Assembly (NCBI GenBank): GCA_000987045.1
Contig: LAKY01000054.1
Span: 14,098-78,097, forward strand
Reading direction: 5' to 3'
DNA: 64,000 nucleotides
Origin: Clostridiales bacterium PH28_bin88
GTDB taxonomy: Bacteria; Bacillota; PH28-bin88
Each line of letters opens with the position of its first letter. Positions within the stretch are counted from its first letter, which is position 1. A program made the translations under genes and the position numbers. The notes below the pieces were generated by a model. The model made no database searches and was not told where the DNA came from. It saw nothing but the letters and a program-made list of their open reading frames with translations. Positions 2,045-50,188 of the stretch are shown one piece after another.

Positions 2045-2181
2045 TAAACCAAAATTCACTTTGTCAACCGCCAAAATGGCTAGAAAACGGTAGAAAAATC
2101 CTGCCATTGCAAGAAAACACCCCTTATAATAGAGACAGAGGGTAGTCCTTGCCCGAATCTCTAAAATAAGGGAGATGAAAA

Positions 2182-17800: not shown

Positions 17801-19642
17801 TCACCTAATCATTACGCGGTATTCCCTCAGCCAGGTATCTACCTGGGCCAGGTAGGCGAAGAGCTGCGGGAGTCGCATCAGCTGGCCAAACCACGGTATG
17901 TCAAAGTCCGCGGTAGACTGGGTAATAGCTCGCACGTAGGACACGTCGAGCAATGGGAGCAGGGGCGAGGCAGGGTCGTCTAGGATACTTAGTATCCAGT
18001 CGCGGACGGCCGCCAGGTACGCAGGGTTATGCGTCTTCGGGTAGGGGCTTTTTCGCCGGGTTAGCACGTCTTCCGGCAGAACGCCTGCCAGCGCCCGGCG
18101 CAGGATGCCTTTTTCCCTGTGGTCGCAGTTTTTGATCTCCCAGGGGATATTCCATACATACTCCACCAGGCGGTGATCACAGTAAGGCACTCGCACCTCA
18201 AGTCCGGTGGCCATACTCATGCGGTCCTTCCGGTCAAGCAGCGTGGCCAGGAACCACGTGATATTAAGGTAGAACATCTCCCGCATGCGGGCCGCAAAGG
18301 GGTCCTCACCCGGCAAACGGGGTGTCTCCGCGAGAGTTTCCCTGTACCGGTCGGCTGCATATTCCTCCGGGCGGATCCAGTCAACCAGTTCGGGTGACAG
18401 CAAGCGCGTCCGTTCCTGCATTGCCCGGGACCAGGGAAAGGTACCGGCGGCAAGGGCCTCTTCCCGGTGAAACCACGGGTATCCGCCAAACACCTCGTCG
18501 GCGGACTCACCTGACAGCCCGACGGTGGCCTCTTTTTTTATTTCATGGCAGAACAAGTATAAGGAAGAATCCACGTCGGCCATGCCGGGCAAATCGCGGG
18601 CACGAAGAGCCGTGATCAGGGCATCCACAAGTTGGGGTGTGTCAACCGTGACAGTGTGGTGGTGCGTACCCAGGAAGTCCGAGACGCGCCGTACCCACGG
18701 GGTGTCGGAGTTGGTCTCGAAGTCATTCGGATGGAAATAGCGGTCGTTGTCAGTATAGTCTATGGAGTAGGTGTGGATCGGTCCCAGGCCGGCTTCCTTG
18801 AAGGCGCCGGCGGCGAATGCGGTGATGGCGCTTGAGTCGAGACCGCCCGACAGCAGGGTGCAGACGGGCACGTCGGCCACTAGTTGCCGTTCTACAGTAT
18901 CCTGTAAAAGCTCACGAATCTTGTTGGCAGTAGTCTTCAGGTCATCCTCATGAGGGCGGCTTTCCAGTGACCAGTAGCGGCGCATGTGTATACCTTTACG
19001 GTCATATACCAGGTAGTAGCCCGGCCTGATTTCCTTGATGTCGCGGAACACTCCATGTCCCGGCGTACGAGCCGGGCCCAGGGCGAACACCTCCGCGAGA
19101 CCCTCGGCGTCCACCTCCGGCCGGACCGCCGGGTGTGCCAGGATGGACTTCAACTCTGAACCGAACAAGAAAGCGCTACCGCGCTGTGTATAAAAGAGGG
19201 GCTTGACGCCCAGCCGGTCGCGGGCGAGGAAAAGGCTCTGGTCGCCGTCGTTCCAGACACCGAACGCAAAAATCCCGTTGAGTCGCTCTACGCATGCCGT
19301 TCCCCATTCCATAAACGAGGCCAGCAGGACTTCGGTGTCGGAATGGCCCTGGAACGAGTAGCCACGTGCTTCCAATTCCCGCCGTAGTTCGGGCGTGTTG
19401 TACAACTCTCCGTTATAGGTGATCACGTATGTGCTATCCCCCCGCCGGCGGATCATGGGTTGACCGCCGCCCTCGGGATCGACTACCACCAGGCGCCGGT
19501 GGCCGATGGCGGCGCGTTGCGACACCCACGTCCCGGCAGCGTCCGGCCCCCGGTTGGACAGGGTCTCCACCATTGCCGACAGGATTAACTGCCGTTGGGT
19601 CAGGTCCGCTTCCCAGTCTATCCAGCCCGTAATTCCGCACAT
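17801..19642 (-). CDS. asnB: Asparagine synthase (glutamine-hydrolysing)
   Basis: N-terminal MCGITG, RGPD, YNGELYN, LSGGLDSS, SGESADE. Confidence 0.95.
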   Translation of the reverse strand: MCGITGWIDWEADLTQRQLILSAMVETLSNRGPDAAGTWVSQRAAIGHRRLVVVDPEGGGQPMIRRRGDSTYVITYNGELYNTPELRRELEARGYSFQGHSDTEVLLASFMEWGTACVERLNGIFAFGVWNDGDQSLFLARDRLGVKPLFYTQRGSAFLFGSELKSILAHPAVRPEVDAEGLAEVFALGPARTPGHGVFRDIKEIRPGYYLVYDRKGIHMRRYWSLESRPHEDDLKTTANKIRELLQDTVERQLVADVPVCTLLSGGLDSSAITAFAAGAFKEAGLGPIHTYSIDYTDNDRYFHPNDFETNSDTPWVRRVSDFLGTHHHTVTVDTPQLVDALITALRARDLPGMADVDSSLYLFCHEIKKEATVGLSGESADEVFGGYPWFHREEALAAGTFPWSRAMQERTRLLSPELVDWIRPEEYAADRYRETLAETPRLPGEDPFAARMREMFYLNITWFLATLLDRKDRMSMATGLEVRVPYCDHRLVEYVWNIPWEIKNCDHREKGILRRALAGVLPEDVLTRRKSPYPKTHNPAYLAAVRDWILSILDDPASPLLPLLDVSYVRAITQSTADFDIPWFGQLMRLPQLFAYLAQVDTWLREYRVMIR

Positions 19643-19682
19643 ATCTTTCCCCCTCCTTTTTGTAAGCGGCAACGGCAAGGAA

Positions 19683-19763
19683 ATAAAAAACACCCCCAAG
19701 GCCGTTTGTCACCTGCCTTAAGGGGCGCCATTGCCCGTTGCGTGGGTTGCGTCATTGCAACCC
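19683..19763 (-). promoter_or_regulatory. ANTAR dual-hairpin antitermination leader of asnB
   Basis: Minus strand: GGGTTGC-AATGAC-GCAACCC, then GGGC-AATGGC-GCCC overlapping terminator GCGCCCCTTAAGGC...GCCTTGGGGGTGTTTTTT. Confidence 0.82.
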
Positions 19764-19838
19764 GCGGCGATAAGTTATTATTTTCAATCCATACTACGTT
19801 GCGAGGGAAAAAAATGTGAGTAGGCAGCGCGTTTTTTC

Positions 19839-20945
19839 CTAGCCTACCTCTTCCGCATAGGCGAGGATCCTTCGTAGGGTAGCGTCCCGGAGGGCATTGA
19901 TGGCTTCAAAATCCATATTCGGCACGTAGTATTCTTCCATCTCGTCGTGGGTCAGTTTAGCCCGGAGGATTAGGGAGACCGCCCGGTCGATGGCCTCCTG
20001 GTAGCGCCTTTTCGCGATGCCCATATCCTCCGTAAAGGAGGCCAGGGCTGAACTGCTGACGAATCTGGCGGTATGGATGACCGCGTCACTGTCCCTGGCC
20101 GGGTACCTGTGTGGACCCATACTGGAAATAACCGCGATGTCCAGGGAGGGAATGATCAGGTGCTCGATCCGGTCCGGCGCCAGCGCGCAATGGAAGGCTT
20201 CCACGTCATAACCATAGCCTACGGCGGTGTCATAAACCTTTTTAACAATGGTGCTCTTCCCGGTCCCATCGTCACCGGTGATGATGTACCTTTTTTGCAG
20301 GTGGTCGAAGAGGGTCTCGAAGTGGTTAACAAGCCCGCCTGGAGAAATTGCGCTGGCAAAAAGATGCCTCGCTCTAGCCTCCCTGAGTTGGGGGCCGTTG
20401 GAAAATATTTCGCTGACAAGGGTATTGGCCAGTGAATTTAATCCTACTACGTCCAAAGCGCGGCCGTCGATGTAGTAACTTTCTACCTCATCCAGTAATA
20501 TTTTTGCTTGAGCCAGATATCCGTAAGCCCGCCTGAATAGCCGTCCAACTTCCCTGTTTAGTTTCAGTATTTGCTCTTTATTAGCCCGCATCCCGGTTTC
20601 GTCCCAGTAGTCTCCCAGGTGGATTATCTCGTCAACCGCGCCAGGGTTTTTGGGGTCGACGATGTGAGGGGCTGTACCGTCGATCATCGCTACACCGATA
20701 GCGGGAATAACCACCCCATCCAGCGAGCCGTTATCAGAGGAGCAGCAGTGGTGCTCAAGGTCGAAACCCTTCTCCAACATGGCGTCTCCGATCACCCGCA
20801 TCAATGTGGATTTGCCCACTCCGGGACCTCCCTTGATGATCATAATCCTGCGGGCATCGGGCGGGATGATGTGCTCGTAAAAGGAATAGAAACCCACAGA
20901 TGTATTACCGCCGGGGAATACTTTTCTCAACCTTCCATTAGCCAT
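19839..20945 (-). CDS. PRK06851-family P-loop ATPase
   Basis: VFPGGNT, GGPGVGKST, DGTAPH, second Walker A GDDGTGKS. Confidence 0.85.
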   Translation of the reverse strand: MANGRLRKVFPGGNTSVGFYSFYEHIIPPDARRIMIIKGGPGVGKSTLMRVIGDAMLEKGFDLEHHCCSSDNGSLDGVVIPAIGVAMIDGTAPHIVDPKNPGAVDEIIHLGDYWDETGMRANKEQILKLNREVGRLFRRAYGYLAQAKILLDEVESYYIDGRALDVVGLNSLANTLVSEIFSNGPQLREARARHLFASAISPGGLVNHFETLFDHLQKRYIITGDDGTGKSTIVKKVYDTAVGYGYDVEAFHCALAPDRIEHLIIPSLDIAVISSMGPHRYPARDSDAVIHTARFVSSSALASFTEDMGIAKRRYQEAIDRAVSLILRAKLTHDEMEEYYVPNMDFEAINALRDATLRRILAYAEEVG

Positions 20946-21119
20946 TAGACTTCTCCCTCCCTCGTAATCGGTTTCAAGGTTTTTTTACAACACCATACTA
21001 TGCAAAGGGAAAGATAGTGTGAGGGAAACTCCCCTACATTTTTCCGCCCATACATGGTAAAATGTAGAGGAATTGTTGGCCTATCAGCAAAAGAGATTGC
21101 TTGGAAAGGAAGGATACCA

Positions 21120-22310
21120 ATGAACGACCAAGTCTATTCCCCTACCAGGACCCTGATGGGGCCGGGGCCCAGTGACGTGCACCCACGGGTGCTGCAAGCC
21201 ATGGCCAGCCCTGTGATCGGCCACCTGGACCCGGTTTTCCTGCAGATCATGAACGGGACCATGGATATGCTGAGAAAGGTATTTGGCACCGAGAACCAGT
21301 TAACCGTCCCCATGTCTGGAACCGGCAGTTCAGGTATGGAGACCTTGTTCGTCAACCTGATTGAACCTGGCGACAAGGTGGTGATCGGGGTCAACGGCCT
21401 TTTCGGGCAGCGGATGGTGGATGTGGCCGCGCGGGTGGGCGCCGAGGTGATCCAGGTTACAGCCCCGTGGGGGCAACCCTTGGACCCGGCGGAAATAGAG
21501 CAGGCGCTAAAACAGCACGGCCAGGTTAAGGCGGTAGGGGTGGTGCACGCGGAAACCTCCACGGGGGTCAGGCAGCCCCTTGAGCCTATCGGCGAGTTGG
21601 CCCACCGGTACGGGGCCTTGTTCCTGGTGGATGCGGTCACCTCCCTGGGGGGTATCCCGGTGGAAGTGGACCGGGTGGGCATTGACGCGTGCTATAGCGG
21701 TACCCAGAAGTGCCTGAGCGTGCCTCCCGGTCTATCGCCGGTCACCTTTAACCAGGAGGCGGTTAAGGTGCTGGGAGAAAGAAAGGGTATAGTACAGAGC
21801 TGGTACCTGGATCTGACCATGATCCAGAGATACTGGGGAGCAGAGCGCTTCTACCACCACACTGCGCCTATCTCCATGATTTATGCCCTGCGCGAAGGAC
21901 TGGCCCTGATACTGGAAGAAGGGCTGGAGCAGGTTTACGCCCGTCACAGGTTAAACGGGGAGGCTTTGCAGGCCGGCCTGATCGGCATGGGCCTAAAACT
22001 CCTGGTGGATGAGCAGTATCGCCTTCCCGAGCTGACCTCAGTCCTGGTGCCCGAGGAAGTGCAGGACGTCGAAGTTCGGAAGCGCTTGCTCCAGCTATAC
22101 AATATCGAGATTGGCGGTGGACTGGGTGAACTGAAAGGCAAGATCTGGCGGGTTGGCCTGATGGGGCACACCTGCCGCAGGAGGAATGTGCTAACCTTCT
22201 TGAGCGCCCTCGAGGATATCCTGATCCAGTTGGGTTACCGGACAGAAAACGGTTCCGGGATACGAGAGGCTCTCAGGGTGTACCAGGCAGCCGGGGGTGT
22301 AACAATCTAG
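21120..22310 (+). CDS. Alanine-glyoxylate/serine-pyruvate aminotransferase (class V)
   Basis: LMGPGPS, VHAETSTG, VDAVTS, GTQKCL, YHHT, WRVGLMG. Confidence 0.9.
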   Translation: MNDQVYSPTRTLMGPGPSDVHPRVLQAMASPVIGHLDPVFLQIMNGTMDMLRKVFGTENQLTVPMSGTGSSGMETLFVNLIEPGDKVVIGVNGLFGQRMVDVAARVGAEVIQVTAPWGQPLDPAEIEQALKQHGQVKAVGVVHAETSTGVRQPLEPIGELAHRYGALFLVDAVTSLGGIPVEVDRVGIDACYSGTQKCLSVPPGLSPVTFNQEAVKVLGERKGIVQSWYLDLTMIQRYWGAERFYHHTAPISMIYALREGLALILEEGLEQVYARHRLNGEALQAGLIGMGLKLLVDEQYRLPELTSVLVPEEVQDVEVRKRLLQLYNIEIGGGLGELKGKIWRVGLMGHTCRRRNVLTFLSALEDILIQLGYRTENGSGIREALRVYQAAGGVTI

Positions 22311-22335
22311 CGTTTACAGGACGAAGGTGCGGGTA

Positions 22336-22911
22336 ATGTACGGTTTACGGATACTGCTGGCTGACCCTGATCCCCATTCGCGGAAAAATTTAAAAGGCAT
22401 CCTTGGCCGGGCCGGACACCAGGTATTTGCGGAGGCCGGGGACGGGCGGATTGCCGCGCAGTTGGCTTTCAACCGGCAGCCCGACATGGTGATTCTGGAC
22501 GTCAACCTTCCGGTCCGGGATGGGTTGGAGGTGGCCCGGGTGCTGGAGGAACACCGGGTAGCTCCGGTGTTGCTGCTAATCGGTGGAGACTACTGGGAAG
22601 TGCTAGAGCGTGCCAAGGAAGCAGGAGTGTATGGATGCCTGGTTAAGCCTGTCAGCGAGGCAACTATCATCCCGGAGGTGGAAATAGCCTGGACCAACTT
22701 TCAGCGGATTCGCCGCCTGGAGGAGGAGAACCGGGAATTACGCGAGACCCTGGAAACCAGGAAACTGGTGGAGAAAGCCAAAGGTATCCTGATGGAGAAA
22801 AGGGGTATCACCGAGGGAGAGGCCTACCAGTTCATGCGAAAACTCAGTATGGACCGGTGCACCTCCCTGGGAAGGATAGCTAAAGCCGTGCTGAGGGGAG
22901 AGGTGATGTAG
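22336..22911 (+). CDS. ANTAR-domain response regulator 1
   Basis: Receiver (VILD, LVKP) + coiled coil + ANTAR LETRKLVEKAKGILM...AYQFMRKLSMD. Confidence 0.92.
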   Translation: MYGLRILLADPDPHSRKNLKGILGRAGHQVFAEAGDGRIAAQLAFNRQPDMVILDVNLPVRDGLEVARVLEEHRVAPVLLLIGGDYWEVLERAKEAGVYGCLVKPVSEATIIPEVEIAWTNFQRIRRLEEENRELRETLETRKLVEKAKGILMEKRGITEGEAYQFMRKLSMDRCTSLGRIAKAVLRGEVM

Positions 22912-22952
22912 GGGTCTTGGGGAAAGTATACAGTATTCCTTTTTTGCGAGTC

Positions 22953-23073
22953 TTGGATTGAACTGTCCCCTTTGGTATAATCTTAGGCAATAACGGAATA
23001 AGGTGTTAGGGCAATGGCGTCCTCCAACGCAGGTACTTTCTTTTATTACCTGTTTTTGGGGGCGCTTTTCTTT
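22953..23073 (+). promoter_or_regulatory. SigA promoter followed by ANTAR hairpin/terminator leader of GS paralog 1
   Basis: TTGGAT-17-TATAAT with extended TG; AGGGC-AATGGC-GTCCT (23008-23023) overlapping a terminator ending GGGGGCGCTTTTCTTT. Confidence 0.72.
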
Positions 23074-23160
23074 ATGTACAGGGTGCTGTGCGTTGTGGAT
23101 AATTTCCTGTGCGGGGTTTTTACATTCTCCTGGGTCTATCGCTAAAGGAGGAGAAAGATT

Positions 23161-24486
23161 ATGTATACGAAGGAAGATGTCCTGGCCAAGGCCAGGGAAT
23201 TTCACGTAAAGTTTCTCAGGCTGCAGTTTACCGACATCTTTGGCGTGTTAAAGAACATCGCTGTAACGGTAGAGGACCTGGAAAAGGCCCTGGCAGGGGA
23301 AATGATCTTCGACAGTTCGGTGGTGGAGGGCCAGGTACGAAACCGTGAGCGGGATATCGTATTGAAGCCGGACCCGACTACATTTGTTATCTTCCCCTGG
23401 CGCCCGCGGGAGGGGGCGGTGGCACGCCTGATCTGTGATGTAAATAACCCTGATGGGACACCTTATCCAGGTTGCCCGCGGAACGTGCTGAAGCAGGTGC
23501 TGGCGGAAACAGCCGGCATGGGGCTCACGGTGCGGGTGGGGTCGGAAGCCGAGTTTTACCTGTTCCATACCGATGAAAAGGGTAACCCCACCACCGACAC
23601 CCATGACCGGGCGGGTTTCTGTGACTTGACACCGGTGGACCTGGGGGAAAATGCACGGCGGGACATGGTGCTGACCCTGGAGGAGATGGGTTTCGAGATC
23701 GGTTCCAGCCACCATGAGTTGGGGCCCGGCCAGCACGAAATCGTGCTGAAGCACGATCATGCACTGGCTACCGCCGATAAGGTGATCACCTTCAAGTTTG
23801 TGGTACGAACTATCGCGCAACGCCACGGGCTGTATGCTTCCTTCATGCCCAAGCCCATTTGGGGCATGCCCGGCTCAGCCCTCCACTGGCACATCTCATT
23901 ATTTAGAAATGGGACCAACGCCCTGTACCACCCCGAGCGGCCACAGGGGTTGAGCCAAGAGGCTATGAGCTTTATTGCGGGTATACTGAACCATGCCCGG
24001 GCCAATACAGCCATTACCAACCCGATAGTCAACTCCTATAAAAGGCTGGTACCCAGCGACCTGGCGCCGGCCTACGTGGCATGGTCCGAACACAACCGCA
24101 ACTCGGTGATCCGGGTACCTGCCCACCGGGGTCAGGAGACCCGGGTGGAGGTCAGGAACCCCGACCCAACGTGTAACCCCTATTTGGCCCTGGCGGTGAT
24201 GATCAAGTCGGGCCTGGAGGGGATTGTCCAGGGAAGTACCCCGCCGGCCCCTGTAACCGATAATATCTTTCAGATGGACGACGGGCGCCGGGAGGCCCTA
24301 CAGGTGGCCTGCCTGCCGAGGCACTTGCACGAAGCACTGCAAGAACTGGCGGGAGACCACCTGGTTCGATCGACATTGGGCGAGTACATCTACCAGCGTT
24401 TTTCCGAGGCCAAGGAAGAAGAATGGGAGCGGTACCAGAATACGGTACATCCCTGGGAATTGAGAGAGTACTTGAGTACATTCTGA
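23161..24486 (+). CDS. Glutamine synthetase family protein (divergent active site)
   Basis: GSI-alpha fold motifs LQFTDI, EAEF, HHELGPGQHE, FMPKP, EVR; FDSS and PSDLAP substitutions. Confidence 0.88.
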   Translation: MYTKEDVLAKAREFHVKFLRLQFTDIFGVLKNIAVTVEDLEKALAGEMIFDSSVVEGQVRNRERDIVLKPDPTTFVIFPWRPREGAVARLICDVNNPDGTPYPGCPRNVLKQVLAETAGMGLTVRVGSEAEFYLFHTDEKGNPTTDTHDRAGFCDLTPVDLGENARRDMVLTLEEMGFEIGSSHHELGPGQHEIVLKHDHALATADKVITFKFVVRTIAQRHGLYASFMPKPIWGMPGSALHWHISLFRNGTNALYHPERPQGLSQEAMSFIAGILNHARANTAITNPIVNSYKRLVPSDLAPAYVAWSEHNRNSVIRVPAHRGQETRVEVRNPDPTCNPYLALAVMIKSGLEGIVQGSTPPAPVTDNIFQMDDGRREALQVACLPRHLHEALQELAGDHLVRSTLGEYIYQRFSEAKEEEWERYQNTVHPWELREYLSTF

Positions 24487-24566
24487 GTTCTTCAATTACT
24501 TCTTAAGGGAGGTGAGGTAAGCGGGTAGGTTTTAGGTTGCTAGTCACCGGTGAAGTGTAGAGTAGC

Positions 24567-24619
24567 AAAAGAAAAAGAGAGAAAGAAAAAAGAGAGAAAG
24601 AAAAAAGAGAGAAAGAAAA
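24567..24619 (+). repeat. Purine-only 15-bp tandem repeat (about 3 copies)
   Basis: GAGAGAAAGAAAAAA at 24577, 24592 and 24607 (partial). Confidence 0.85.
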
Positions 24620-24652
24620 TTCCCGAGAGGAAAAACAGGAGGATGGTAGAAA

Positions 24653-26230
24653 ATGACTTATAGTGTAGGCATTAACGCCACGGAGGCAACTCTTACCAGG
24701 CACCGCCTGAAGAACGATTTTGCCCCGTACAGCGGCATGTGTGTAACCTGCCTGGATGGCTGCCCCGGCATGTGTGAGGTAGGCAAGTCGGCTGTTCGCG
24801 GCAAAGAGGTTCTCTACCCGCAGCCCTTCGGCAAGACGACCTCTGCTTCCCAGAAGGATTATCCTGTGGACTACTCCCATTTCAACATCATGGGTACCGC
24901 CGTAGGCGCCCACGGCATTGAGGCGGACAGCAACAAGGCCATTTTCCCGGCTGTCAACCTGGAGACCGAGATTGGCGCTACCAATAAAATCAAGGTGCGC
25001 CTGCCTATCGTGATCGCTGCCATGGGTTCCACCAATGTGGCGGCGGATAACTGGGATCACCTGGCGGTTGGCGCCGCCGTTTCCGGTGTGGGTATTGCTA
25101 TCGGGGAAAATGTTTGTGCCATGGATCCTAACTCCGAGATTAAGAACGGTCGGGTGATCAAGTCCCCCAACCTGGAAAAAAGGGTGAAGGTGTTCCAGGA
25201 CTGGTACAACGGCTATGGATTTATTGCCGTGCAGGCCAACGTGGAAGATACCAACCTGGGCGTGCAGGAATACGCCCTGGAGAAGCTGGGTGTGGAAGCG
25301 GTCGAGATCAAGTGGGGCCAGGGCGCCAAGGACATCGGCGGTGAAGTGAAGCTGAATACCCTGGAACGCGCTCTCCAGCTCAAGAGCCGCGGCTATATCG
25401 TGCTGCCCGACCCGGAAGATCCGCGGGTACAGGCTGCCTTTAAAGCGGGGGCTTTCTCCGAGTTTGAACGCCATTCCCGTATCGGCATGGTTACAGAGGA
25501 ATCCTTCCATGCCCGGGTAGCGGAACTCCGTAAGGCCGGGGCCAAGTACGTATTTCTCAAAACCGGTGCTTACCGGCCGGCAGACCTGGCCAGGGCGGTC
25601 AAGTTCGCCTCCGATGCCAAGATTGACCTCCTCACGGTGGACGGCGCGGGCGGCGGTACCGGCATGAGCCCATGGCGCATGATGAACGAGTGGGGTGTGC
25701 CTACTGTCTACATCCAGGGGCTTTTGACCAAGTACCTGGACCGGTTGGCTGCTAAGGGCGCTTTCGTTCCCAGTGTTGCCATTGCCGGCGGTTTTGCCCT
25801 GGAAGACCACATGTTCAAGGGTCTGGCCATGAGCGCGCCGCACGTGAAGCTGATCGGTATGGCGAGGGCTCCCCTGGCGGCTGCCATGGTGGGCAAGGTA
25901 GTAGGTGAGAAATTAAAAGAGGGCGCTGCACCCGCCGAGTACAAGAAGTACGGGGAGAACCTCGAGCAGGTGTTTATCCTGGCGGATGAACTGAAGGGTA
26001 AGTTGGGGGCGGACTTTGACCGCTTACCGGTTGGGGCCATCGGTGTTTATACCTACTTCGAACGGCTGGCCCAGGGACTCAAGCAGTTCATGTGCGGGGC
26101 CCGCAAGTTCAGCCTGGAATACATTACCCGGGATGATCTAGCTGCCCTCACCAAGGAAGCGGCAGACATCACAGGCATTCAGTACATCATGGACGCGGAT
26201 CACGAAGAAGCAGAGAGAATCTTGGGATAG
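24653..26230 (+). CDS. FMN-binding glutamate synthase family protein
   Basis: EIKWGQGAKDIGGE, VDGAGGGTG, IAGG; N-terminal CxxCxxxCxxxC. Confidence 0.88.
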   Translation: MTYSVGINATEATLTRHRLKNDFAPYSGMCVTCLDGCPGMCEVGKSAVRGKEVLYPQPFGKTTSASQKDYPVDYSHFNIMGTAVGAHGIEADSNKAIFPAVNLETEIGATNKIKVRLPIVIAAMGSTNVAADNWDHLAVGAAVSGVGIAIGENVCAMDPNSEIKNGRVIKSPNLEKRVKVFQDWYNGYGFIAVQANVEDTNLGVQEYALEKLGVEAVEIKWGQGAKDIGGEVKLNTLERALQLKSRGYIVLPDPEDPRVQAAFKAGAFSEFERHSRIGMVTEESFHARVAELRKAGAKYVFLKTGAYRPADLARAVKFASDAKIDLLTVDGAGGGTGMSPWRMMNEWGVPTVYIQGLLTKYLDRLAAKGAFVPSVAIAGGFALEDHMFKGLAMSAPHVKLIGMARAPLAAAMVGKVVGEKLKEGAAPAEYKKYGENLEQVFILADELKGKLGADFDRLPVGAIGVYTYFERLAQGLKQFMCGARKFSLEYITRDDLAALTKEAADITGIQYIMDADHEEAERILG

Positions 26231-26233
26231 TCT

Positions 26234-26266
26234 CCTTGGGGTGCCCGGTAACGGGCACCCCAAGTT
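26234..26266 (+). terminator. Stem-loop terminator
   Basis: CTTGGGGTGCCCG-GTAA-CGGGCACCCCAAG. Confidence 0.7.
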
Positions 26267-26390
26267 ATTAAGGCCCATGGTAGTAATTTTTTTTGGCTTA
26301 AAGCGCAAACTTATGCTATAATTACCCTATGCTGAATCGTACAAACTTGTTCTTCTAGCAGTATAGGGGAAGTGAGGGGAATTATCCGGC

Positions 26391-27725
26391 ATGAGCAAGT
26401 TGACCGCGGAAGATGTCCGCATCATGGTGAAGGAACTGGGCGTCAAGTTTATTCGTTTACAGTTTACCGATATCCTGGGTGTACTGAAAAACGTGGCCAT
26501 CACCGTTGACCAACTGGAAAAAGCGCTAAATAACGAATTGATGTTTGACGGCTCCTCTATCGAAGGCTTCGTGCGCATCGAGGAATCCGACATGTACCTG
26601 CGGCCCGACCCCTCAACCTTTGTGGTATTTCCCTGGCGGGCCAAGGAAAATGGCGCGGTGGCGAGGATGATGTGCGACATTTATAATCCCGATGGTACGC
26701 CCTTTGCCGGGTGCCCCCGCTGCAACCTGCAGCGGGTGATGGGCGAGGCGGCACAGTTGGGCTACACCATGAATGTGGGCCCTGAGGCGGAGTTTTTCCT
26801 CTTTCACACTGACGCTGAAGGGAAGGCCACCACGATCACTCATGATCGGGCCGGTTACTTCGACATGACGCCGGTGGACCTTGGGGAAAACGCCAGGCGG
26901 GATATGGTGCTCACCCTTGAAGATATGGGGTTTGAAGTGGAAGCCTCCCACCACGAGGTGGCTCCAGGTCAACACGAGATCGATTTTAAGTATTCCGATG
27001 CTCTGGACATCGCCGATAAAATCGTTACCTTTAAATTTGTGGTACGTACTATCGCTCAACGCCACGGATTGCATGCCACTTTCATGCCCAAGCCCATTTT
27101 CGGTATCCCCGGGTCCGGCATGCACCTCAATCAGTCCTTGGTCAAAAACGGTGAGAACGCCTTTTTTGACCCCGGTAATCCCGAACAGCTCAGCGAAATA
27201 GCCCGTTACTATGTAGGTGGCCTAATGAAGCACGCCCGGGCGCTAACGGCGGTCGTCAACCCAACCGTTAACTCGTATAAGCGGCTGGTGTCCGGATTTG
27301 AGGCTCCCGTGTACATCGCCTGGTCGGCACGGAACCGGAGCCCCCTTATCCGTATACCGGCCAAGCGGGGCCAGTCCACCCGTATAGAGTTCCGCAGCCC
27401 TGACCCATCCTGCAACCCGTATTTCGCCCTGGCAGCCTGCCTGGCGGCAGGTCTGGACGGCATCAAGAACCGGATTGAGCCACCGTCTACCTGTGACCGC
27501 AACATCTATGAGATGACCCCTAAAGAGAGGGAAGAAATAGGTATCGGAACCCTCCCTGAGTCTTTACAGGAGGCGTTGCAGGAACTCTCCCGGGACGAGG
27601 TAGTCAAGGGTGCGCTTGGGGAGCATGCTTACCACCGGTTCATGGAGGCGAAGCAGATCGAGTGGGACCGCTACCGGATGCAGGTGCATGACTGGGAATT
27701 GCAGGAATACCTTACGAAATTCTAG
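26391..27725 (+). CDS. glnA: Type I glutamine synthetase (paralog 2)
   Basis: [44 protein letters not shown]. Confidence 0.93.
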
Positions 27726-27797
27726 CGCTTTAAGTAGAAGCATATCGAAAACAACGTCACCTGCCTTATGTATACAATATTTTGCTAGGAAGTAGTA

Positions 27798-27912
27798 TTG
27801 AGTTTGCATTTCCCCTCTGGTACAATAAGAAATAATTAGCTTGTCAATCCGCATTACCATGTGGGCAACGGCGTCCTCTGGTGCGAGTCCGTACTCGTCG
27901 GGGGGCGCCTTC
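27798..27912 (+). promoter_or_regulatory. SigA promoter and ANTAR hairpin leader of ANTAR regulator 2
   Basis: TTGAGT-17-TACAAT; GGGC-AACGGC-GTCC (27863-27876) overlapping a long hairpin ending GGGGGGCGCCTT. Confidence 0.65.
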
Positions 27913-27990
27913 ACGTTCTGCAGTGGCACAGATGGGCATAATATTGGCGTAGCTGCAGGAATCATACTTGGCATGGTTAGGGGTGGCCTG

Positions 27991-28575
27991 ATGTTAGGCA
28001 CAAAAATATTTGTGGCCAGTGGCGATGAGACCATTCGCCGCACCCTTAAAAGTATTTTGACCAAGGAAGGGTATCACGTAGTGGGCGAAGGAGAAGACGG
28101 GGCCGGTACCCTGCGGGGGGTCCGGTCAGTGATCCCTGACCTCGTGATCCTGGATGCGGACATACCGGGAACTAGCGGTATGGAGGTGGCCAAGATCCTG
28201 GAAGAGGATCGCTTGGCCCCCATTATCCTTTTAACTTCAACCTGGCAAAAAGAACTGGTACAAAAGGCTAAAGAGTTCTGGGTGCTCTCTTTTGTGGTTA
28301 AGCCCATCTCCGATACCATCTTACTCCCGGCGGTAGAGTCCGCCTTGGCCACCTTCCACCGGGTACGTAACCTGGAGAAGGAAGTAGCCAAACTGAAGGA
28401 CACCCTGGAGAGCAGGAAATTGGTGGAGAAAGCAAAAGGGATCCTGATGCAAAATCTCGGTCTTTCCGAGGCCCAGGCCTTCCGGCGCATCCAACAGCAG
28501 AGCATGAACAAGTCCATGACCATGAAGGCGGTGGCAGAGGCCATCATCCTCGCCTTCGAGATGCAGAAAAAATAA
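27991..28575 (+). CDS. ANTAR-domain response regulator 2
   Basis: Receiver (LVILD, LLTS, VVKP) + ANTAR LESRKLVEKAKGILM...AFRRIQQQSM; RBS AGGGGTGG before ATG 27991. Confidence 0.92.
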   Translation: MLGTKIFVASGDETIRRTLKSILTKEGYHVVGEGEDGAGTLRGVRSVIPDLVILDADIPGTSGMEVAKILEEDRLAPIILLTSTWQKELVQKAKEFWVLSFVVKPISDTILLPAVESALATFHRVRNLEKEVAKLKDTLESRKLVEKAKGILMQNLGLSEAQAFRRIQQQSMNKSMTMKAVAEAIILAFEMQKK

Positions 28576-28624
28576 CCCCGAACCTTCCTCCTCGGAAGAG
28601 TTCGGGGTTTTGTTCCTGGGGTGG

Positions 28625-28720
28625 GTACAGCATATTTCCCGGGACGACATCGCCGCCCTTACCCGGGAGGCGGCAGAGGCCAGCGGAATTACCTATGTCA
28701 TGGATATAGAAGGACGGAGG
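28625..28720 (+). pseudogene. 3' remnant of a second FMN-binding glutamate synthase family gene
   Basis: HISRDDIAALTREAAEASGITYVMD aligns with YITRDDLAALTKEAADITGIQYIMD at the C-terminus of 24653-26230. Confidence 0.75.
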
Positions 28721-28885
28721 TTGACCAGATCCTTGGTTGAACAACAATGGCAGGATCAGGCAAGGAAGAATCAAGCATCCTGTATACTTGACGGGATAGC
28801 CTTGCGGCTATTCCGCCCTTGTGTTAAAATTACACTAATATTTTTAAAGGTGAATACCGGCCGGGTACGAAGAAGTACCTGCGTT

Positions 28886-28974
28886 GAGGGCAATGGGGCC
28901 TTCAGAATTTCGGACAACGGCGTCCTACGTTACGGGTGCGGAACACACCTGTAGTGGGGCGTTTTTTGTTTTTT
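28886..28974 (+). promoter_or_regulatory. ANTAR dual-hairpin antitermination leader of glnA paralog 3
   Basis: GAGGGC-AATGGG-GCCTTC (28886-28903) and GGAC-AACGGC-GTCC (28912-28925), the latter overlapping a terminator ending GTGGGGCGTTTTTTG. Confidence 0.85.
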
Positions 28975-29026
28975 CGAAATAATCCTGGGGTACCGGGTCG
29001 GGATTAGCACAAGGGGGTTTTGTAAA

Positions 29027-30358
29027 GTGGCAAGTGTGACCAAGGAAGAAGTGATGGCCAGGGCCAGGGAGATGAACGTCCAGTTTGTCCGCCTGCAGTT
29101 CACCGACATTCTGGGAGTATTGAAGAATGTCGCCATCACGGTGGACCAACTGGAGAAGGCGCTGGATGGGGAATTGATGTTTGACGGTTCCTCCATTGAA
29201 GGGTTTGTCCGCATCGAGGAGTCCGATATGTACCTGCGGCCGGATCCGGATACCTTCACCGTATTCCCGTGGCGGCCCCAGGAGGGAGCGGTGGCCCGGC
29301 TGATCTGTGACGTGTATAATCCGGATGGGACTCCTTTTGCCGGGTGTCCCCGAAATACTTTGAAGCGTGTGCTGGCGGAAGCGGCGGAGATGGGATATAC
29401 CATGAACGTGGGGCCGGAAGCCGAGTTTTTCCTGTTTCATACCGACCCACATGGCCGTCCTACCTTGACTACTCATGACCAGGCCGGGTACTTTGATCTG
29501 ACCCCGGTGGACAGGGGAGAAGACGCACGCCGTGACATGGTCCTTACCCTGCAGAAGATGGGGTTTGAGATCGAGGCTTCCCATCACGAGGTGGCGCCGG
29601 GCCAGCATGAGATCGACTTTAAATATGCCGATGCCCTCACCACTGCCGACAATATCGTGACTTTCAAGTTTGTGGTGCGTACCATCGCCCAGCGCCACGG
29701 GTTGCACGCTACTTTTATGCCAAAACCCGTATTCGGGATCAACGGCTCCGGGATGCACTGCAACCAGTCCCTGTTTAAAGGCGGCACGAATGCCTTTTAC
29801 GATCCAAACGCTCCCCTGGAACTCAGCCAAGTGGCCTATTACTATATCGGTGGACTGATGGACCACGCCAGGGGTATGGCAGCTGTCACCAACCCGACCG
29901 TCAATTCTTATAAACGCCTGGTGCCGGGTTACGAGGCGCCGGTATACATAGCATGGTCGGCGAGGAACAGGAGTCCCTTGATCCGCATTCCGGCCAAACG
30001 GGGTCTCTCAACCCGGATCGAATTGCGGAACCCGGACCCGGCTACCAACCCCTACCTGGCTCTGGCAGTGATGTTGAAGGCTGGTTTGGACGGGATTAAG
30101 CGAAAGATCCAGCCTCCACCGGCTACCGACAGAAATATCTACCACATGGACGCCTCTACCCGGGAGGAACTGGGGATCAAGAGCCTCCCGGGCAGCCTGG
30201 CGGAAGCATTGCATGAGTTGGCTAAGGACCAGGTTATCGCCGGAGCCCTGGGCGATCACGTATACCAGCATTTTGTGGAAGCAAAACGCATCGAATGGGA
30301 TCACTACCGCATGCAGGTGCATAGTTGGGAGATTGAGCAGTACCTTACAAAATTCTAG
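29027..30358 (+). CDS. glnA: Type I glutamine synthetase (canonical, paralog 3)
   Basis: [41 protein letters not shown] all canonical. Confidence 0.95.
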
Positions 30359-30562
30359 TTTAAGAAAACTCTAAGGTTACTATTCAGGCATTCAGAATTC
30401 AGAATGCCCCGACACGATAAACCGTTCTCTCATTCTGACTACTGCCTTCTGACCCCTAAGTAGTTACACTCTAGAATAATTAATTGTTTTTATCAAAGTC
30501 CACGAGGATATAGGTTCCCATTCAATAAAGAAAAGAGACACGATTCAAACAAGGAGGGTTGA

Positions 30563-31708
30563 GTGATGCTGAAGCGTGAAGGAGATGTAAGGATCCCTTC
30601 CGGGTGTGCCATCAGCGGCATCATGAACCGCAAGGGCCGTGTTTTTTCCGGGGAGGACATCATCAAGTCTATCGCTCTCATGCGGGACCGGTCCAACGGC
30701 CTGGGCGGGGGGTTTGCCGCTTACGGCATCTACCCCGAGTTTAAGGACCATTACGCTTTTCACCTGTTTTATGACGACACGAGGGCCAAGGAGGAGACAG
30801 AGCGATTCTTGAACCACCACTTTAACGTGGAGATGGGAGGACAGATTCCCACCCGGAAGGTGGCTTCCGTAACCGATCCCCCCATTATCTGGCGGTACTT
30901 TGTCAAGCCCAAGCTGGAGCAGCTCATTAAGTTGGAGATACCGGACAATGAATATGTGGTCAAGTGCGTGATGAACATCAACAGCAGGATTGACGGGGCC
31001 TACGTCTTCTCCAGCGGGAAAAACATGGGAGCCTTTAAGGGAGTGGGTTATCCGGAGGAACTGGGCGAGTTTTACCGGCTGGACGAGTACCGGGGTTATA
31101 TCTGGACCGCTCACGGCAGGTTTCCGACCAATACCCCCGGCTGGTGGGGCGGAGCACACCCATTTACTCTTTTGGACTGGTCGGTAGTGCATAATGGCGA
31201 GATTTCGTCCTACGGCGCCAACCGGCGGTACCTGGAGATGTTCGGGTATAAATGTACCTTGCAGACGGACACAGAGGCCATCACATACATCTTCGACCTG
31301 CTGCTTCGCAGGCACGGGGTACCGCTGGAGGTGGCAGTGGCGGCGGTAGCCGCGCCTTTCTGGGCCGATATTCGCCGGATGGATCAGGAGAAAAAAGAGC
31401 TGGCCACGGCCATCCGGACGGTTTACAGCAGCCTTCTGGTGAACGGGCCCTTTTCTATCGTTTTGGGGTCCAGCAACGGAATTATTGCCCTAAACGACCG
31501 GATCAAGCTGCGGCCGCTGACAGCGGCAACCAAAGGGGACTTTCTATACGTGGCCAGTGAGGAATCCGCCATCCGGGAAATCTGCTCCCGGCCGGAGCGT
31601 GTCTGGACTCCCAGGGGCGGCGAGCCGGTTATTGGATTACTGGAAAGGGCCGAGGCTGTATACAGGCCATCGGAGGGGCCGCTCATGATGATTGCCGGCC
31701 AGCAGTAA
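30563..31708 (+). CDS. Glutamate synthase glutamine amidotransferase subunit (class II GAT, GltB1-like)
   Basis: SGCAISG, HGRFPTNT, AHPF, HNGEI, TDTE, DRIKLRP. Confidence 0.88.
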   Translation: MMLKREGDVRIPSGCAISGIMNRKGRVFSGEDIIKSIALMRDRSNGLGGGFAAYGIYPEFKDHYAFHLFYDDTRAKEETERFLNHHFNVEMGGQIPTRKVASVTDPPIIWRYFVKPKLEQLIKLEIPDNEYVVKCVMNINSRIDGAYVFSSGKNMGAFKGVGYPEELGEFYRLDEYRGYIWTAHGRFPTNTPGWWGGAHPFTLLDWSVVHNGEISSYGANRRYLEMFGYKCTLQTDTEAITYIFDLLLRRHGVPLEVAVAAVAAPFWADIRRMDQEKKELATAIRTVYSSLLVNGPFSIVLGSSNGIIALNDRIKLRPLTAATKGDFLYVASEESAIREICSRPERVWTPRGGEPVIGLLERAEAVYRPSEGPLMMIAGQQ

Positions 31709-31737
31709 GGCCGGTTTTGGGAAGGGGTAGACAAGCT

Positions 31738-33240
31738 ATGGGTCTAAGCTTAGCCACACCAGCATTTATGGTAGAACGCAACCGCGATCGATGCATAGAC
31801 TGCCAGGTGTGTGTGCGCCAGTGTGCCAACGAGGTTCATTACTACGATATAGAAGAAGAGCGGGTATATTCCGACGAGATGCAGTGTGTCAACTGTCACC
31901 GGTGCGTGGTGATGTGCCCGACCAGGGCGCTGACGGTGCGCCGGTTCCCGCTGGAGTTCCGGGCCAACGCCAACTGGACGGAGGAGGCGATCAAGTCCAT
32001 CTACGTGCAGGCGGAGACCGGCGGGATCCTGTTAACGGGTATGGGCAATGACCGGCCTTATCCCATCTACTGGGACCACATGTTGATTAACGCCAGCCAG
32101 GTAACCAACCCGTCCATCGACCCCCTGCGGGAGCCCATGGAGTTAAAGACCTTCCTGGGCCGTAAGCCCGAGACGCTGCAAGTAAAAGATGGAAAACTCA
32201 TGCAGCAACTACCGCCCCAGTTGGAATTGGAAGTGCCGATCATGTTTTCCGCCATGTCCTTCGGCTCCATTAGCCTCAATGCCATCAAGTCCCTGGCACG
32301 GGCAGCCCGGGAAGAGGGGACTTACTACAATACCGGCGAGGGCGGTTTACACAAAGACCTGTACCAGTACGGCGCTAACACCATCGTGCAGGTGGCATCC
32401 GGCAGGTTCGGGGTGCACCCGGAGTACCTGCGGGCCGGGGCGGCTATTGAGATCAAGATCGGCCAGGGGGCCAAGCCGGGGATCGGCGGTCACCTGCCCG
32501 GCGAAAAGGTGGGGAGAGATGTATCTGAAACCCGCATGATCCCAGAAGGGACGGACGCCCTGTCCCCGGCACCCCACCACGACATCTATTCAATTGAGGA
32601 CCTTCGTCAATTGATTTATTCTCTCAAAGAGGCCACTGACTATGAAAAACCCGTATCCGTGAAGATCGCGGCGGTGCACAACGTGGCAGCCATCGCTTCC
32701 GGCATTGCCCGGGCGGGGGCGGACATCATCGCCATTGACGGGTACCGGGGAGGTACCGGGGCCACGCCGTTACGTACCAGGGATCACGTGGGGATACCCA
32801 TCGAATTTGCCCTGGCGGCGGTGGACACGCGTCTCAGGGAAGAAGGGATCCGGAACCAGGTATCTCTTGTGGTTGCCGGAAGTGTCAGGAACAGCGCCGA
32901 CGTCATTAAGGCCATCGCCTTGGGGGCGGATGCGGTGTACATCGCGAGTTCTGCCCTGATTGCCCTGGGGTGCCACATGTGCCAGAAGTGCTATACCGGG
33001 AAGTGTAACTGGGGAATCGCTACCCAGGACCCGCAACTGGTGAAACGCCTGAACCCTGATATTGGGGCCAGGAGGGCGGCCAACCTGCTCCGGGCATGGA
33101 AGCACGAGATCAAGGAAATGCTTGGCGGGATGGGCATCAACGCCCTGGAGAGCCTGCGGGGCAACCGCCTGATGCTCCGGGGAATTGGCCTGACTGACCG
33201 TGAATTGGAGATCCTGGGCATCCTGCCCGCCGGGGAATAG
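31738..33240 (+). CDS. Glutamate synthase FMN subunit with N-terminal 2x[4Fe-4S] (GltB2-like)
   Basis: Two CxxCxxCxxxC motifs; AMSFGS, NTGEGG, QVASGRFG, KIGQGAKPGIGGHLPG, C-x5-C-x4-C. Confidence 0.93.
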   Translation: MGLSLATPAFMVERNRDRCIDCQVCVRQCANEVHYYDIEEERVYSDEMQCVNCHRCVVMCPTRALTVRRFPLEFRANANWTEEAIKSIYVQAETGGILLTGMGNDRPYPIYWDHMLINASQVTNPSIDPLREPMELKTFLGRKPETLQVKDGKLMQQLPPQLELEVPIMFSAMSFGSISLNAIKSLARAAREEGTYYNTGEGGLHKDLYQYGANTIVQVASGRFGVHPEYLRAGAAIEIKIGQGAKPGIGGHLPGEKVGRDVSETRMIPEGTDALSPAPHHDIYSIEDLRQLIYSLKEATDYEKPVSVKIAAVHNVAAIASGIARAGADIIAIDGYRGGTGATPLRTRDHVGIPIEFALAAVDTRLREEGIRNQVSLVVAGSVRNSADVIKAIALGADAVYIASSALIALGCHMCQKCYTGKCNWGIATQDPQLVKRLNPDIGARRAANLLRAWKHEIKEMLGGMGINALESLRGNRLMLRGIGLTDRELEILGILPAGE

Positions 33241-33251
33241 GGGGAAAGACA

Positions 33252-33716
33252 ATGAAGCGAGTTTACGCCAGGGAGGAGTACTGCGTGGGCTGCAGGCTGT
33301 GCGAGGTGCACTGCGTGGTGGCTCATTCCCGCTACAAAGACATCGTGAAAGCGTTTAAAAAGGACAACCACCGTCCTTTGCCCCGGATTTTTGTCGAAGA
33401 AAACAGGCCTGTATCCTTTGCCCTGCAGTGCCGTCATTGTGAAGAAGCTCATTGTACCAAGGCATGCATCACCGGGGCGATGCAAAAAGACCCTGTTACC
33501 GGTGTGGTCATTTGCGACGAATCCCGGTGTGTCGGGTGCTGGACATGTATCCTGGCCTGTCCTTTCGGGGCCATCGCCCGGGACGAACGGGGTAAAAAGG
33601 TGGCCTCCAAGTGCGACTTGTGTAGCGGGAGCGGTGACATCCCCGCTTGTGTTAAAAACTGTCCCAATGAAGCACTGGTATTCGTGGAATCAAACCCGGA
33701 GCCGAAAGTGGTATAG
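33252..33716 (+). CDS. 4Fe-4S dicluster protein (CooF/DmsB-like)
   Basis: CVGCRLCEVHC, CRHC, CVGCWTCILACP, KCDLC. Confidence 0.9.
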   Translation: MKRVYAREEYCVGCRLCEVHCVVAHSRYKDIVKAFKKDNHRPLPRIFVEENRPVSFALQCRHCEEAHCTKACITGAMQKDPVTGVVICDESRCVGCWTCILACPFGAIARDERGKKVASKCDLCSGSGDIPACVKNCPNEALVFVESNPEPKVV

Positions 33717-33735
33717 GAACGGGGGGAAGCAAGCA

Positions 33736-49741: not shown

Positions 49742-49834
49742 TAATTGCAACGTGTCTTAGAACCTGTGGAGCAAAACAAAGGGGGAATAATTCGCTTTTG
49801 GCGATTGAAACTGAATAGATCCCGAAAGGGTTAA

Positions 49835-50156
49835 ATGCATTGATTGGGGAAAGTACCCTGTAGTACGCTTCCAGGGAGACCGTGCCGTGACTGAAAGCCG
49901 GTTAAGCGAAAAGCAGGTGAAGTTCCCCCAGGAGCAGCAGGCTGAAGTTAGTGGTTAGTGTATCAGGGAACCTTTGATCACTGCCCGCTAATCAGTAATG
50001 AGTAGGCTGAGCCGGTTTCTTCCACCGTTAGCGGGAAGGCAGTATCAGGTTTTTCGTACCTCGTACTGATCAAGTGAATCTAAAGTTATTTAGATTAATG
50101 TGGGTGGTACCGCGGAAGTAAGCTTTCGTCCCTAGGAGATGAAGGCTTTTTTGTTT
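49835..50156 (+). ncRNA. T-box riboswitch (Phe)
   Basis: Specifier TTC (49923), GACTGAAA distal loop, T-box GGGTGGTACCGCG (50102), terminator with T-run. Confidence 0.9.
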
Positions 50157-50188
50157 TGGGTAAACCCATACAATTAGGAGGATGTCCG

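Follow-up and report, generated by a model that had tools for sequence, protein, structure and literature searches.

The 64,000-nucleotide (nt) stretch of genomic DNA from Clostridiales bacterium PH28_bin88 analysed here (contig LAKY01000054.1, positions 14,098 to 78,097; hereafter the window, to which positions refer unless a contig is named) carries a cluster of nitrogen-assimilation genes that very probably form a regulon controlled after transcription start by ANTAR-type antitermination. Such a regulon had been proposed earlier from the letters of the window (the original prediction), and the covariation of the leader hairpins, the classes of genes that follow such leaders in relatives, the co-occurrence of the leaders with ANTAR genes and the conserved RNA-contact residues of the regulators all argue for it. 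Regulons of this kind are already known, having been predicted in 2012, and this genome adds one more member.

Four leaders in the cluster, i.e., those of asnB for asparagine synthase, of the glutamine synthetase (GS) paralogs GS1 and GS3, and of the second of two ANTAR regulators, share the hairpin P2 with the pattern GGRCAAYGGCGYCC. Searched with up to one mismatch, the pattern has four matches in the window, all without mismatches, against 0.37 expected from shuffled sequences, and none of 100 shuffles reached four. The matches lie where the shared hairpin motif had been placed, at 19723-19736 on the minus strand and at 23009-23022, 27863-27876 and 28912-28925 on the plus strand, all intergenic and in the sense orientation. 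Each copy forms a stem of 4-5 base pairs (bp) closing a hexaloop, AATGGC or AACGGC, with A at its first and G at its fourth position (A1/G4), and A1 and G4 are present in all six loops of the window (AATGAC, AATGGC, AATGGC, AACGGC, AATGGG and AACGGC). The leaders of asnB and GS3 have the full form, in which a further A1/G4 hairpin, P1, precedes P2:

19744..19763, minus strand: asnB leader P1, GGGTTGC[AATGAC]GCAACCC, 7-bp stem, A1/G4 hexaloop (sequence, fold)
19723..19736, minus strand: asnB leader P2, GGGC[AATGGC]GCCC, after a 7-nt linker from P1 (sequence, motif count)
19681..19728, minus strand: asnB leader terminator with tail TTTTTTATTT, its 5' arm reusing the last P2 loop bases and the P2 3' arm (folds)
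28884..28905, plus strand: GS3 leader P1, TTGAGGGC[AATGGG]GCCTTCAG, 8-bp stem (sequence, fold)
28912..28925, plus strand: GS3 leader P2, GGAC[AACGGC]GTCC, after a 6-nt linker from P1 (sequence, motif count)
28920..28975, plus strand: GS3 leader terminator with tail TTTTTTGTTTTTT (folds)

Both leaders thus fall within the published dual-hairpin definition (Ramesh et al. 2012), by which a short linker of variable length joins two stem-loops with hexanucleotide loops and stems of 3 bp or more; they have 7+4 bp and a 7-nt linker in asnB and 8+4 bp and a 6-nt linker in GS3, and sequence, fold and covariance-model score agree on the dual form that had been predicted for them. The asnB P1 covaries among the asnB leaders of the relatives G003 and G004. 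A third hexaloop hairpin, GGTAC[GAAGAA]GTACC, stands at 28865-28880 (plus strand), 4 nt 5' of the GS3 P1, with G4 present and G instead of A at position 1. The two remaining leaders have the following elements:

22990..22999, plus strand: GS1 leader degenerate P1, AT[AACGGA]AT, 2-bp stem with A1/G4 loop, 10 nt 5' of P2 (8 nt if P2 is taken with its 5-bp extended stem)
23008..23023, plus strand: GS1 leader P2, AGGGC[AATGGC]GTCCT (sequence, motif count)
23017..23073, plus strand: GS1 leader terminator, long hairpin spanning GCGTCCTCCAA to TTGGGGGCGC, with TTTTCTTT after it (folds)
27863..27876, plus strand: regulator-2 leader lone hexaloop hairpin, GGGC[AACGGC]GTCC (sequence, motif count)
27870..27909, plus strand: regulator-2 leader GC-rich hairpin reusing the P2 3' arm, with tail TTCACGTTCT (folds)

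In the minimum-energy fold of all four leaders the last P2 loop bases and the P2 3' arm make up the 5' arm of a longer downstream hairpin, which bears out the predicted overlap of P2 with a terminator or long hairpin. The energy needed to enforce P2 is 4.5 kcal/mol in asnB, 7.4 in GS1, 12.0 in regulator 2 and 8.9 in GS3; because the terminator fold beats the P2-enforced folds by 4.5-12 kcal/mol, the default state would be terminated, or OFF. The downstream hairpin is followed by a U-run in the asnB, GS1 and GS3 leaders, so that P2 overlaps a terminator there. We propose that the default fold, a terminator or long hairpin, would halt transcription before the gene, and that the alternative fold, P2 with its A1/G4 hexaloop and C-G closing pair, would sequester the terminator's 5' arm. 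Either or both of the regulators of the cluster, which combine a receiver (REC) and an ANTAR domain, would be activated, presumably by phosphorylation at the conserved Asp, and would then bind the hexaloop or hexaloops as a dimer and hold P2, letting the polymerase read through into asnB, into GS1 and probably the gene for a protein of 525 amino acids (aa) that resembles glutamate synthase, into regulator 2, and into GS3 and probably the split glutamate synthase. This scheme follows the one established for EutV, NasR and AmiR. We infer the RNA binding, the readthrough, the nitrogen signal, the kinase and the assignment of regulators to leaders.

The dual-hairpin form recurs in related genomes. 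R1, a covariance model trained on two dual hairpins of the window and two of relatives, matched nine of 40 relatives at E<=0.01. Eight of the nine carry ANTAR genes, and the match in the ninth, ANTAR-negative genome lies within an apparent coding stretch; ANTAR domains scored above the Pfam cut-off in 25 of the 40. Ten of the 12 R1 matches outside the own genome have a terminator-like hairpin on their 3' side (with only a weak U-tail at locus L055), and the genes after these ten, named from N-terminal sequences without a Pfam scan, are asnB (two, in G003 and G004, with the start MCGI...), GS (four), a glutamate synthase (GOGAT)-type amidotransferase (two), an ANTAR regulator (one) and a MerR/GlnR-like gene (one). 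The other two of the 12, L050 and L051, were judged to be chance for want of an ANTAR-like context. The dual-hairpin ANTAR-type leader at L055 (genome G010, 1501-1620) stands before a small gene whose product reads as MerR/GlnR-type (..LTGLTQRQIRY..), a hint that a second nitrogen regulator is under ANTAR control.

In an alignment of 13 dual hairpins, from whose sources L050 and L051 had been left out beforehand, 98.6% of the cells pair, nine of the 11 pairs change on both sides and none of 500 shuffles reaches the observed values, the alignment being fitted to the model in a way that favours structure. Sliding the pairing partners lowers the pairing to 33-61%, and the closing C-G pair is invariant in both helices of all 13. 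In the 41 genomes together the P2 pattern has 44 matches, against 17 for the pattern read backwards. When a terminator-type site is defined by a P2 3' arm that is re-paired downstream and at least four T in the next nine bases, a lenient rule that also passes the regulator-2 tail with its four non-contiguous T, 17 of the 44 sites are of this type, all in ANTAR-positive genomes, and none of the six matches in ANTAR-negative genomes belongs to it. Among 80 loci centred on homologs of the ANTAR regulators, R1 had 15 matches, all on the strand of the regulator; Desulfofundulus australicus DSM 11792 has three R1 matches, which flank the regulator gene and the GS gene that follows it, also on the strand of the regulator.

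The assembly of 4.98 Mb has two matches to ANTAR (PF03861) above the cut-off, and both lie in the cluster, which confirms the two regulators of the original prediction:

22327..22911, plus strand: ANTAR regulator 1, REC+ANTAR (Pfam)
27991..28575, plus strand: ANTAR regulator 2, REC+ANTAR (Pfam), with its open reading frame (ORF) listed from 27841 and the likely start at ATG 27991

Regulator 1 scores 75.7 bits for ANTAR and 65.2 for Response_reg, and regulator 2 scores 76.2 and 63.0, all above the Pfam cut-offs; the two proteins are 41% identical. Both belong to the EutV/PdtaR class and align over their full length to Rv1626/PdtaR (1s8n; E 1.2e-39 for regulator 1 and 3.8e-42 for regulator 2) and also to EutV (6wsh; E 4e-29 and 2e-32, respectively). 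The acceptor Asp is kept in VILDVNLP of regulator 1 and VILDADIP of regulator 2, as compared with VIMDVKMP in Rv1626 and VLMDIQMP in EutV, where Asp54 is the BeF3 site in the structural account of Walshe et al. (2022, NAR, PMC8934654). The same account gives R142, K149, E160 and Y164 of EutV as the contacts of the flipped-out G4. Read by eye from the HMMER alignments, with a two-residue offset allowed between the PDB chain and the numbering of the paper, regulator 1 keeps four of these four residues and regulator 2 three, with Tyr replaced by Phe as in Rv1626. Nothing in these residues, as far as an alignment can tell, points to a differing RNA specificity of the two regulators. Judged by the similarity of its regulators, this genome has its nearest named relatives in Bacillota metagenome-assembled genomes, Desulfotomaculum, Thermincola, Desulfofundulus and Desulforudis.

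Several observations weigh against this reading. GS2, the third GS paralog of the window, has no ANTAR-type leader, and therefore not every GS paralog is under such control. No histidine kinase adjoins either regulator gene, and a search of the assembly for HisKA_2 (PdtaS-type) kinases gave no match, other kinase families not having been searched. In the own genome, where R1 scored 150 of about 1,100 first-look candidates, only the asnB (53.5 bits, 19723-19763) and GS3 (50.2 bits, 28885-28925) leaders were significant; the covariance-model scan that had been suggested as a check thus recovered these two but not GS1 (19.6 bits, E about 1) or regulator 2 (14.3 bits). The latter two leaders also fall outside the two-hairpin definition, and the hairpin of regulator 2, although it overlaps P2, ends in a tail without a U-tract. 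The fitting of the covariation alignment to its model belongs on the same side.

The missing HisKA_2 kinase leaves room for, without directly supporting, a different account, in which the leaders work as a metabolite-binding riboswitch or a tRNA sensor like the T-box, or answer to an RNA-binding protein of another kind, and the likeness of the hexaloops is coincidental. We regard this as highly improbable: the leader region has no Rfam match that reaches the gathering score or E<=5, bar one chance microRNA match, elements of about 40 nt are too small for a ligand pocket, terminator-type sites are confined to ANTAR-positive genomes, and the sites cluster round ANTAR genes, with 15 of 15 R1 matches in the 80 regulator-centred loci on the strand of the regulator. 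Three other R1 matches of about 20 bits in the assembly (C26:153601, C72:14340 and C13:3630) were rejected, as they have no ANTAR-like context. The first two (C26:153601-153645 and C72:14340-14384) are similar, non-identical copies of a GC-rich region of another structured RNA, and two such diverged copies would fit the 6% contamination estimate of the assembly.

The GS1 leader had been described as a single-hairpin site, and this holds insofar as the canonical second hairpin is absent, with only a 2-bp stem in its place, but the leader is not bare: the conserved UAACGGAAUA, which is the P1 region, stands 10 nt upstream of P2. In G002 and G003, where the corresponding leaders sit before an amidotransferase gene, TAACGGAATA and its spacing to P2 are unchanged, and the terminator stems differ among the three leaders. 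We read AT[AACGGA]AT of this leader as a putative, nearly stemless P1. A second hairpin, followed by GGGGTTTTTA, stands 3' of the GS1 leader terminator and before the start codon of GS1 (23075-23125, plus strand), and it may be a second attenuation point. The regulator-2 leader is simpler, having no upstream A1/G4 hexaloop hairpin even at 2 bp; a promoter, TTGAGT-17-TACAAT, is predicted at 27798-27826, 5' of the hexaloop. The orthologous regulators of G002 and G003 share this design of a lone hexaloop and a hairpin without a U-tract.

It could therefore be argued that only asnB and GS3 are true ANTAR targets, and that the GS1 and regulator-2 sites are decayed relics, or attenuators or stability hairpins on which no regulator acts. 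Their falling short of the published definition, their R1 scores and the lacking U-tract of regulator 2 fit this explanation, as does the finding that EutV in vitro needs a dimer, both hairpins and a constrained linker (Walshe et al. 2022). We nevertheless think it unlikely. Both sites keep the P2 sequence unaltered, its loop and closing pair included; the GS1-type leader retains the invariant TAACGGAATA with P2 in three genomes despite a changing terminator stem, and the regulator leader retains P2 and hairpin in three genomes. Moreover, eight of the 17 terminator-type P2 sites, in six genomes, lack an A1/G4 P1 of 3 bp, and all eight precede nitrogen or ANTAR regulator genes, and genome G014 has one ANTAR gene and lone sites with no dual-hairpin match at E<=0.01. 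By the published definition the GS1 and regulator-2 sites are not members, and they are ANTAR-like in function at most.

The predicted autoregulated circuit stands in part: the motif and the hairpin are there in the regulator-2 leader, but autoregulation by antitermination is uncertain because the hairpin has no U-tract, likewise in the G002 and G003 orthologs. With P2 alone and no U-tract, this leader is at most a weak or factor-dependent attenuator. A further explanation holds that its hairpin is not a transcription attenuator at all and serves mRNA stability or processing, or is a decoy that titrates the regulator, with autoregulation being different or absent. The absence of a U-tract in three genomes fits, and so does the absence of a terminator between GS2 and regulator 2, whereby the hairpin may lie within a GS2-regulator transcript; Walshe et al. 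(2022) also propose single hexaloops as sites where polymerase timing is irrelevant, as in sequestration by EutX. We consider this explanation quite unlikely all the same, as the P2 3' arm is wholly absorbed by the hairpin, with ten of ten bases re-paired, and the 12 kcal/mol needed to enforce P2 follow the logic of an antiterminator. In other relatives, namely G023 (L011/L045), G038 (L009) and Desulfofundulus australicus (L090), the leader of the regulator itself has both hairpins in full and a terminator with a U-tract.

Nine of the 17 terminator-type P2 sites (one of them weak) are preceded, at no more than 25 nt, by an A1/G4 hexaloop hairpin with a stem of 3 bp or longer. Of the eight without it, three are of the GS1 type with a stemless P1, and the genes after the eight encode GS (window GS1 and G014), amidotransferase (G002 and G003), glutamate dehydrogenase (G018), a glutamate-synthase-like protein (G034) and ANTAR regulators (window regulator 2 and G002). 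The G034 leader belongs to a homolog of the 525-aa gene. A predicted -10-like box stands 10-16 nt 5' of P2 in G034, in G016 and in the regulator leaders of G014, G002 and G003; neither the G016 leader nor that of the G014 regulator belongs to the 17 sites. Over so short a distance a P1 could not fit. Paralog specificity, which had been offered as one reason for single-hairpin sites, is not needed, because G014 with lone sites and G038 with dual sites have one ANTAR gene each; graded control by such sites is a conjecture.

We tentatively propose, as a possibility that falls somewhat short of probable, that in this Bacillota lineage terminator-overlapping lone hexaloops represent a functional and conserved form of the ANTAR switch, in which a REC-ANTAR dimer on a single P2 suffices to block the terminator, P1 is an optional booster of affinity or timing, and tiers switch on at rising regulator activity. 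The tiers would be dual (asnB and GS3), with a stemless P1 (GS1), and with P2 alone (the regulator leader, possibly amtB-glnB and an ABC transporter). If true, this would give a built-in hierarchy and a positive feedback step, and it would contradict the EutV-based view that two hairpins are handed over in succession. According to Walshe et al. (2022), the EutV dimer holds a single hexaloop at any given moment, and the minimal binding motif is redefined as a single hexaloop, while antitermination in vitro needs the dimer, both hairpins and a constrained spacing between them. The authors called for bioinformatic work on single-hexaloop sites, which the tiered arrangement, if real, would answer, and in open-access literature and bioRxiv such sites of ANTAR proteins turned up only in this paper and its preprint. 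The recurrence of terminator-overlapping lone hexaloops in several families is the one point here that may be new. Since lone and stemless-P1 leaders overlap terminators yet escape dual-hairpin covariance searches, such searches undercount ANTAR regulons, and the natural leaders of these forms are ready substrates for the question of single-hexaloop antitermination that the 2022 EutV structure left open.

The regulon probably also takes in genes outside the window. Applied to the whole genome, a stricter descriptor (P2 consensus with at most two substitutions, hairpin kept, arm re-paired, at least four T in nine bases) gave seven matches, against one in the reversed genome: the four window sites, C80:26192, C89:1367 and C43:105946. 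The first of these additional sites is a lone GGGC[AAGGGC]GCCC that overlaps a downstream hairpin in the gap between a fourth GS gene and amtB-glnB, with glnB encoding PII (C80:25040-28030, L082), and the second, GAGGGC[AACGGC]GCTCTC with a U-tract terminator, lies about 270 nt 5' of a Peripla_BP_6/branched-chain-type ABC transporter (C89:1300-3957, L081); picking these two leaned also, post hoc, on gene context. Whether contigs C80 and C89 belong to the same organism is uncertain because the assembly is rated 6% contaminated. Looser descriptors of lone hexaloops were kept out of the counts because they did not rise above background: C[ANNGNN]G had 90 matches versus 76 in the reversed genome when the stem had to reach 4 bp, the arm to be re-paired and the tail to be rich in T, and C[AANGRN]G had 101 versus 101 with no tail rule applied. 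A generic dual ANNGNN descriptor, with 469 matches of which 73 have a T-run, was uninformative. An exact P2 at C39:78777 (L031, 2778-2791) follows a promoter-like box 5' of a 212-aa ORF and overlaps no terminator; the match of the ORF to a YjjI-like glycyl-radical enzyme profile ends after 191 of the 485 profile positions, counted from the first, and this gene may be truncated or frameshifted. Two other matches were judged to be chance, the exact P2 at C39:109387, which is antisense within an aldehyde:ferredoxin oxidoreductase gene, and C80:21953, which is inside a 911-aa ORF.

The ORF list and matches to Pfam and TIGRFAM-type profiles define 17.8-35.7 kb of the window as the nitrogen-assimilation cluster, in the order asnB (minus strand), a P-loop protein, a class V aminotransferase, regulator 1, GS1, the 525-aa protein, GS2, regulator 2, GS3 and the split glutamate synthase. 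Besides the leaders and the regulators, its genes are:

17801..19642, minus strand: asnB, glutamine-hydrolysing asparagine synthase (Pfam Asn_synthase and GATase_7; TIGR01536, 520 bits)
21054-22310, plus strand: aminotransferase class V gene, 17 nt 5' of regulator 1
23161..24486, plus strand: GS1, type I glutamine synthetase paralog (TIGR00653, 466 bits)
26391-27725, plus strand: GS2 (Pfam)
29027-30358, plus strand: GS3 (Pfam, TIGR00653)
30563-31708, plus strand: glutamate-synthase amidotransferase (profile matches)
31717-33240, plus strand: glutamate-synthase FMN/Fe-S subunit (profile matches)
33252-33716, plus strand: ferredoxin-like protein (profile matches)
33391-35001, plus strand: NAD(P)H-FAD oxidoreductase (profile matches)
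35001-35741, plus strand: GXGXG-like domain protein (profile matches)

The likely start of asnB is ATG 19642 (MCGITGW...), and an MCGI start is also present in the relatives' loci L047 and L052. No ANTAR-type site was seen upstream of the operon of the aminotransferase and regulator 1. GS1 is the most divergent of the three GS paralogs of the window, with 466 bits to TIGR00653 as against 606 and 607, and the 525-aa protein 3' of it has a weak glutamate-synthase match; the gap between these two genes is filled by a purine-rich tandem repeat of about three copies with units like AAAGAAAAAAGAGAG (24560-24640, plus strand). Regulator 2 is followed by a terminator-like hairpin at 28590-28607. GS3 and the split glutamate synthase (29027..35741) are likely the downstream cargo of the GS3 leader, probably as a single operon; the 204-nt gap after GS3 (30359-30562) contains no ANTAR-type motif. 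Outside the cluster, a T-box leader at 49831-50136 on the plus strand (Rfam RF00230, 99.8 bits, above the gathering score) stands just 5' of the ORF 50156-51211 and represents a second leader-based control in the window, unrelated to the ANTAR-type leaders. At 1131-3188 (plus strand), downstream of a transposase gene of the IS1595 family, a transposase of the IS4 family occupies two ORFs (2265-2744 and 2778-3188), and this split suggests a frameshifted copy. For the annotation of this uncultured subsurface Bacillota lineage, the leaders help to tell which of the four GS paralogs, asnB, GOGAT and probably amtB-glnB switch together.

Several known systems resemble the one described here. NasR, NasT and AmiR share the ANTAR output domain, the two-hairpin leader logic and nitrogen-source genes as targets, and they differ in their input domains (NIT in one case, NasS as a partner in another, and a pseudo-receiver with AmiC as partner in a third), in their occurrence in Proteobacteria and in their nitrate or amide cargo. 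PdtaR of Mycobacterium tuberculosis (Rv1626, 1s8n) is the best solved-structure sequence match of both regulators, and regulator 2 has the same Phe at the G4-stacking position, whereas PdtaR pairs with the PdtaS kinase, of the HisKA_2 type not found in this assembly. Actinobacterial ANTAR RNAs are described in bioRxiv 660928 as translational repressors overlapping start sites, whereas the leaders here overlap terminators. EutV/EutW of Enterococcus faecalis has the same architecture of REC, coiled coil and ANTAR, the same acceptor Asp and the same RNA-contact residues, and the eut leaders as described share the A1/G4 hexaloops, the conserved closing pairs and the overlap of P2 with the terminator, with a linker of 5-12 nt compared with 6-7 nt here. 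Unlike in the eut system, the cargo is nitrogen assimilation and not ethanolamine use, no kinase adjoins the regulators, lone-hexaloop leaders are present and an EutX-like decoy was not seen. The studied functional analogue is NitR of Clostridium saccharobutylicum and C. acetobutylicum, an ANTAR-family antiterminator from an anaerobic spore-forming Firmicute that is reported to induce GS/GOGAT on nitrogen limitation; an antisense RNA layer is described for that system (PMC6316151, PMC4676874).

The closest counterparts are the regulons of Ramesh et al. (2012, PLoS Genet), a survey in which most ANTAR RNA matches lie before nitrogen genes. Its Table S2 gives matches in Candidatus Desulforudis before the ANTAR regulator, then GS, then amidotransferase and glutamate synthase, like layouts in Carboxydothermus hydrogenoformans, Desulfotomaculum acetoxidans and D. 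carboxydivorans, matches at amtB-PII, and asparagine synthase matches in Clostridium sp. NC_015737 and Mahella. The predicted extension of the regulon to asparagine synthase thus holds, the asnB dual-hairpin leader being present here and in relatives, but it is not new, and neither is the leader of the regulator itself, as both kinds of target are in that table. The dual-hairpin search definition of the survey would have missed two of the four window sites, which lack that form. Like the regulons listed there, ours has the hexaloop pair overlapping a terminator, comprises GS, glutamate synthase or a gene like it, probably amtB-PII and possibly the ANTAR regulator's own gene, and follows the same local order of glutamate-synthase-like gene, regulator, GS, amidotransferase and glutamate synthase. 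It differs in that the survey did not include this genome, and in that three GS paralogs and two regulators are brought together in one cluster.

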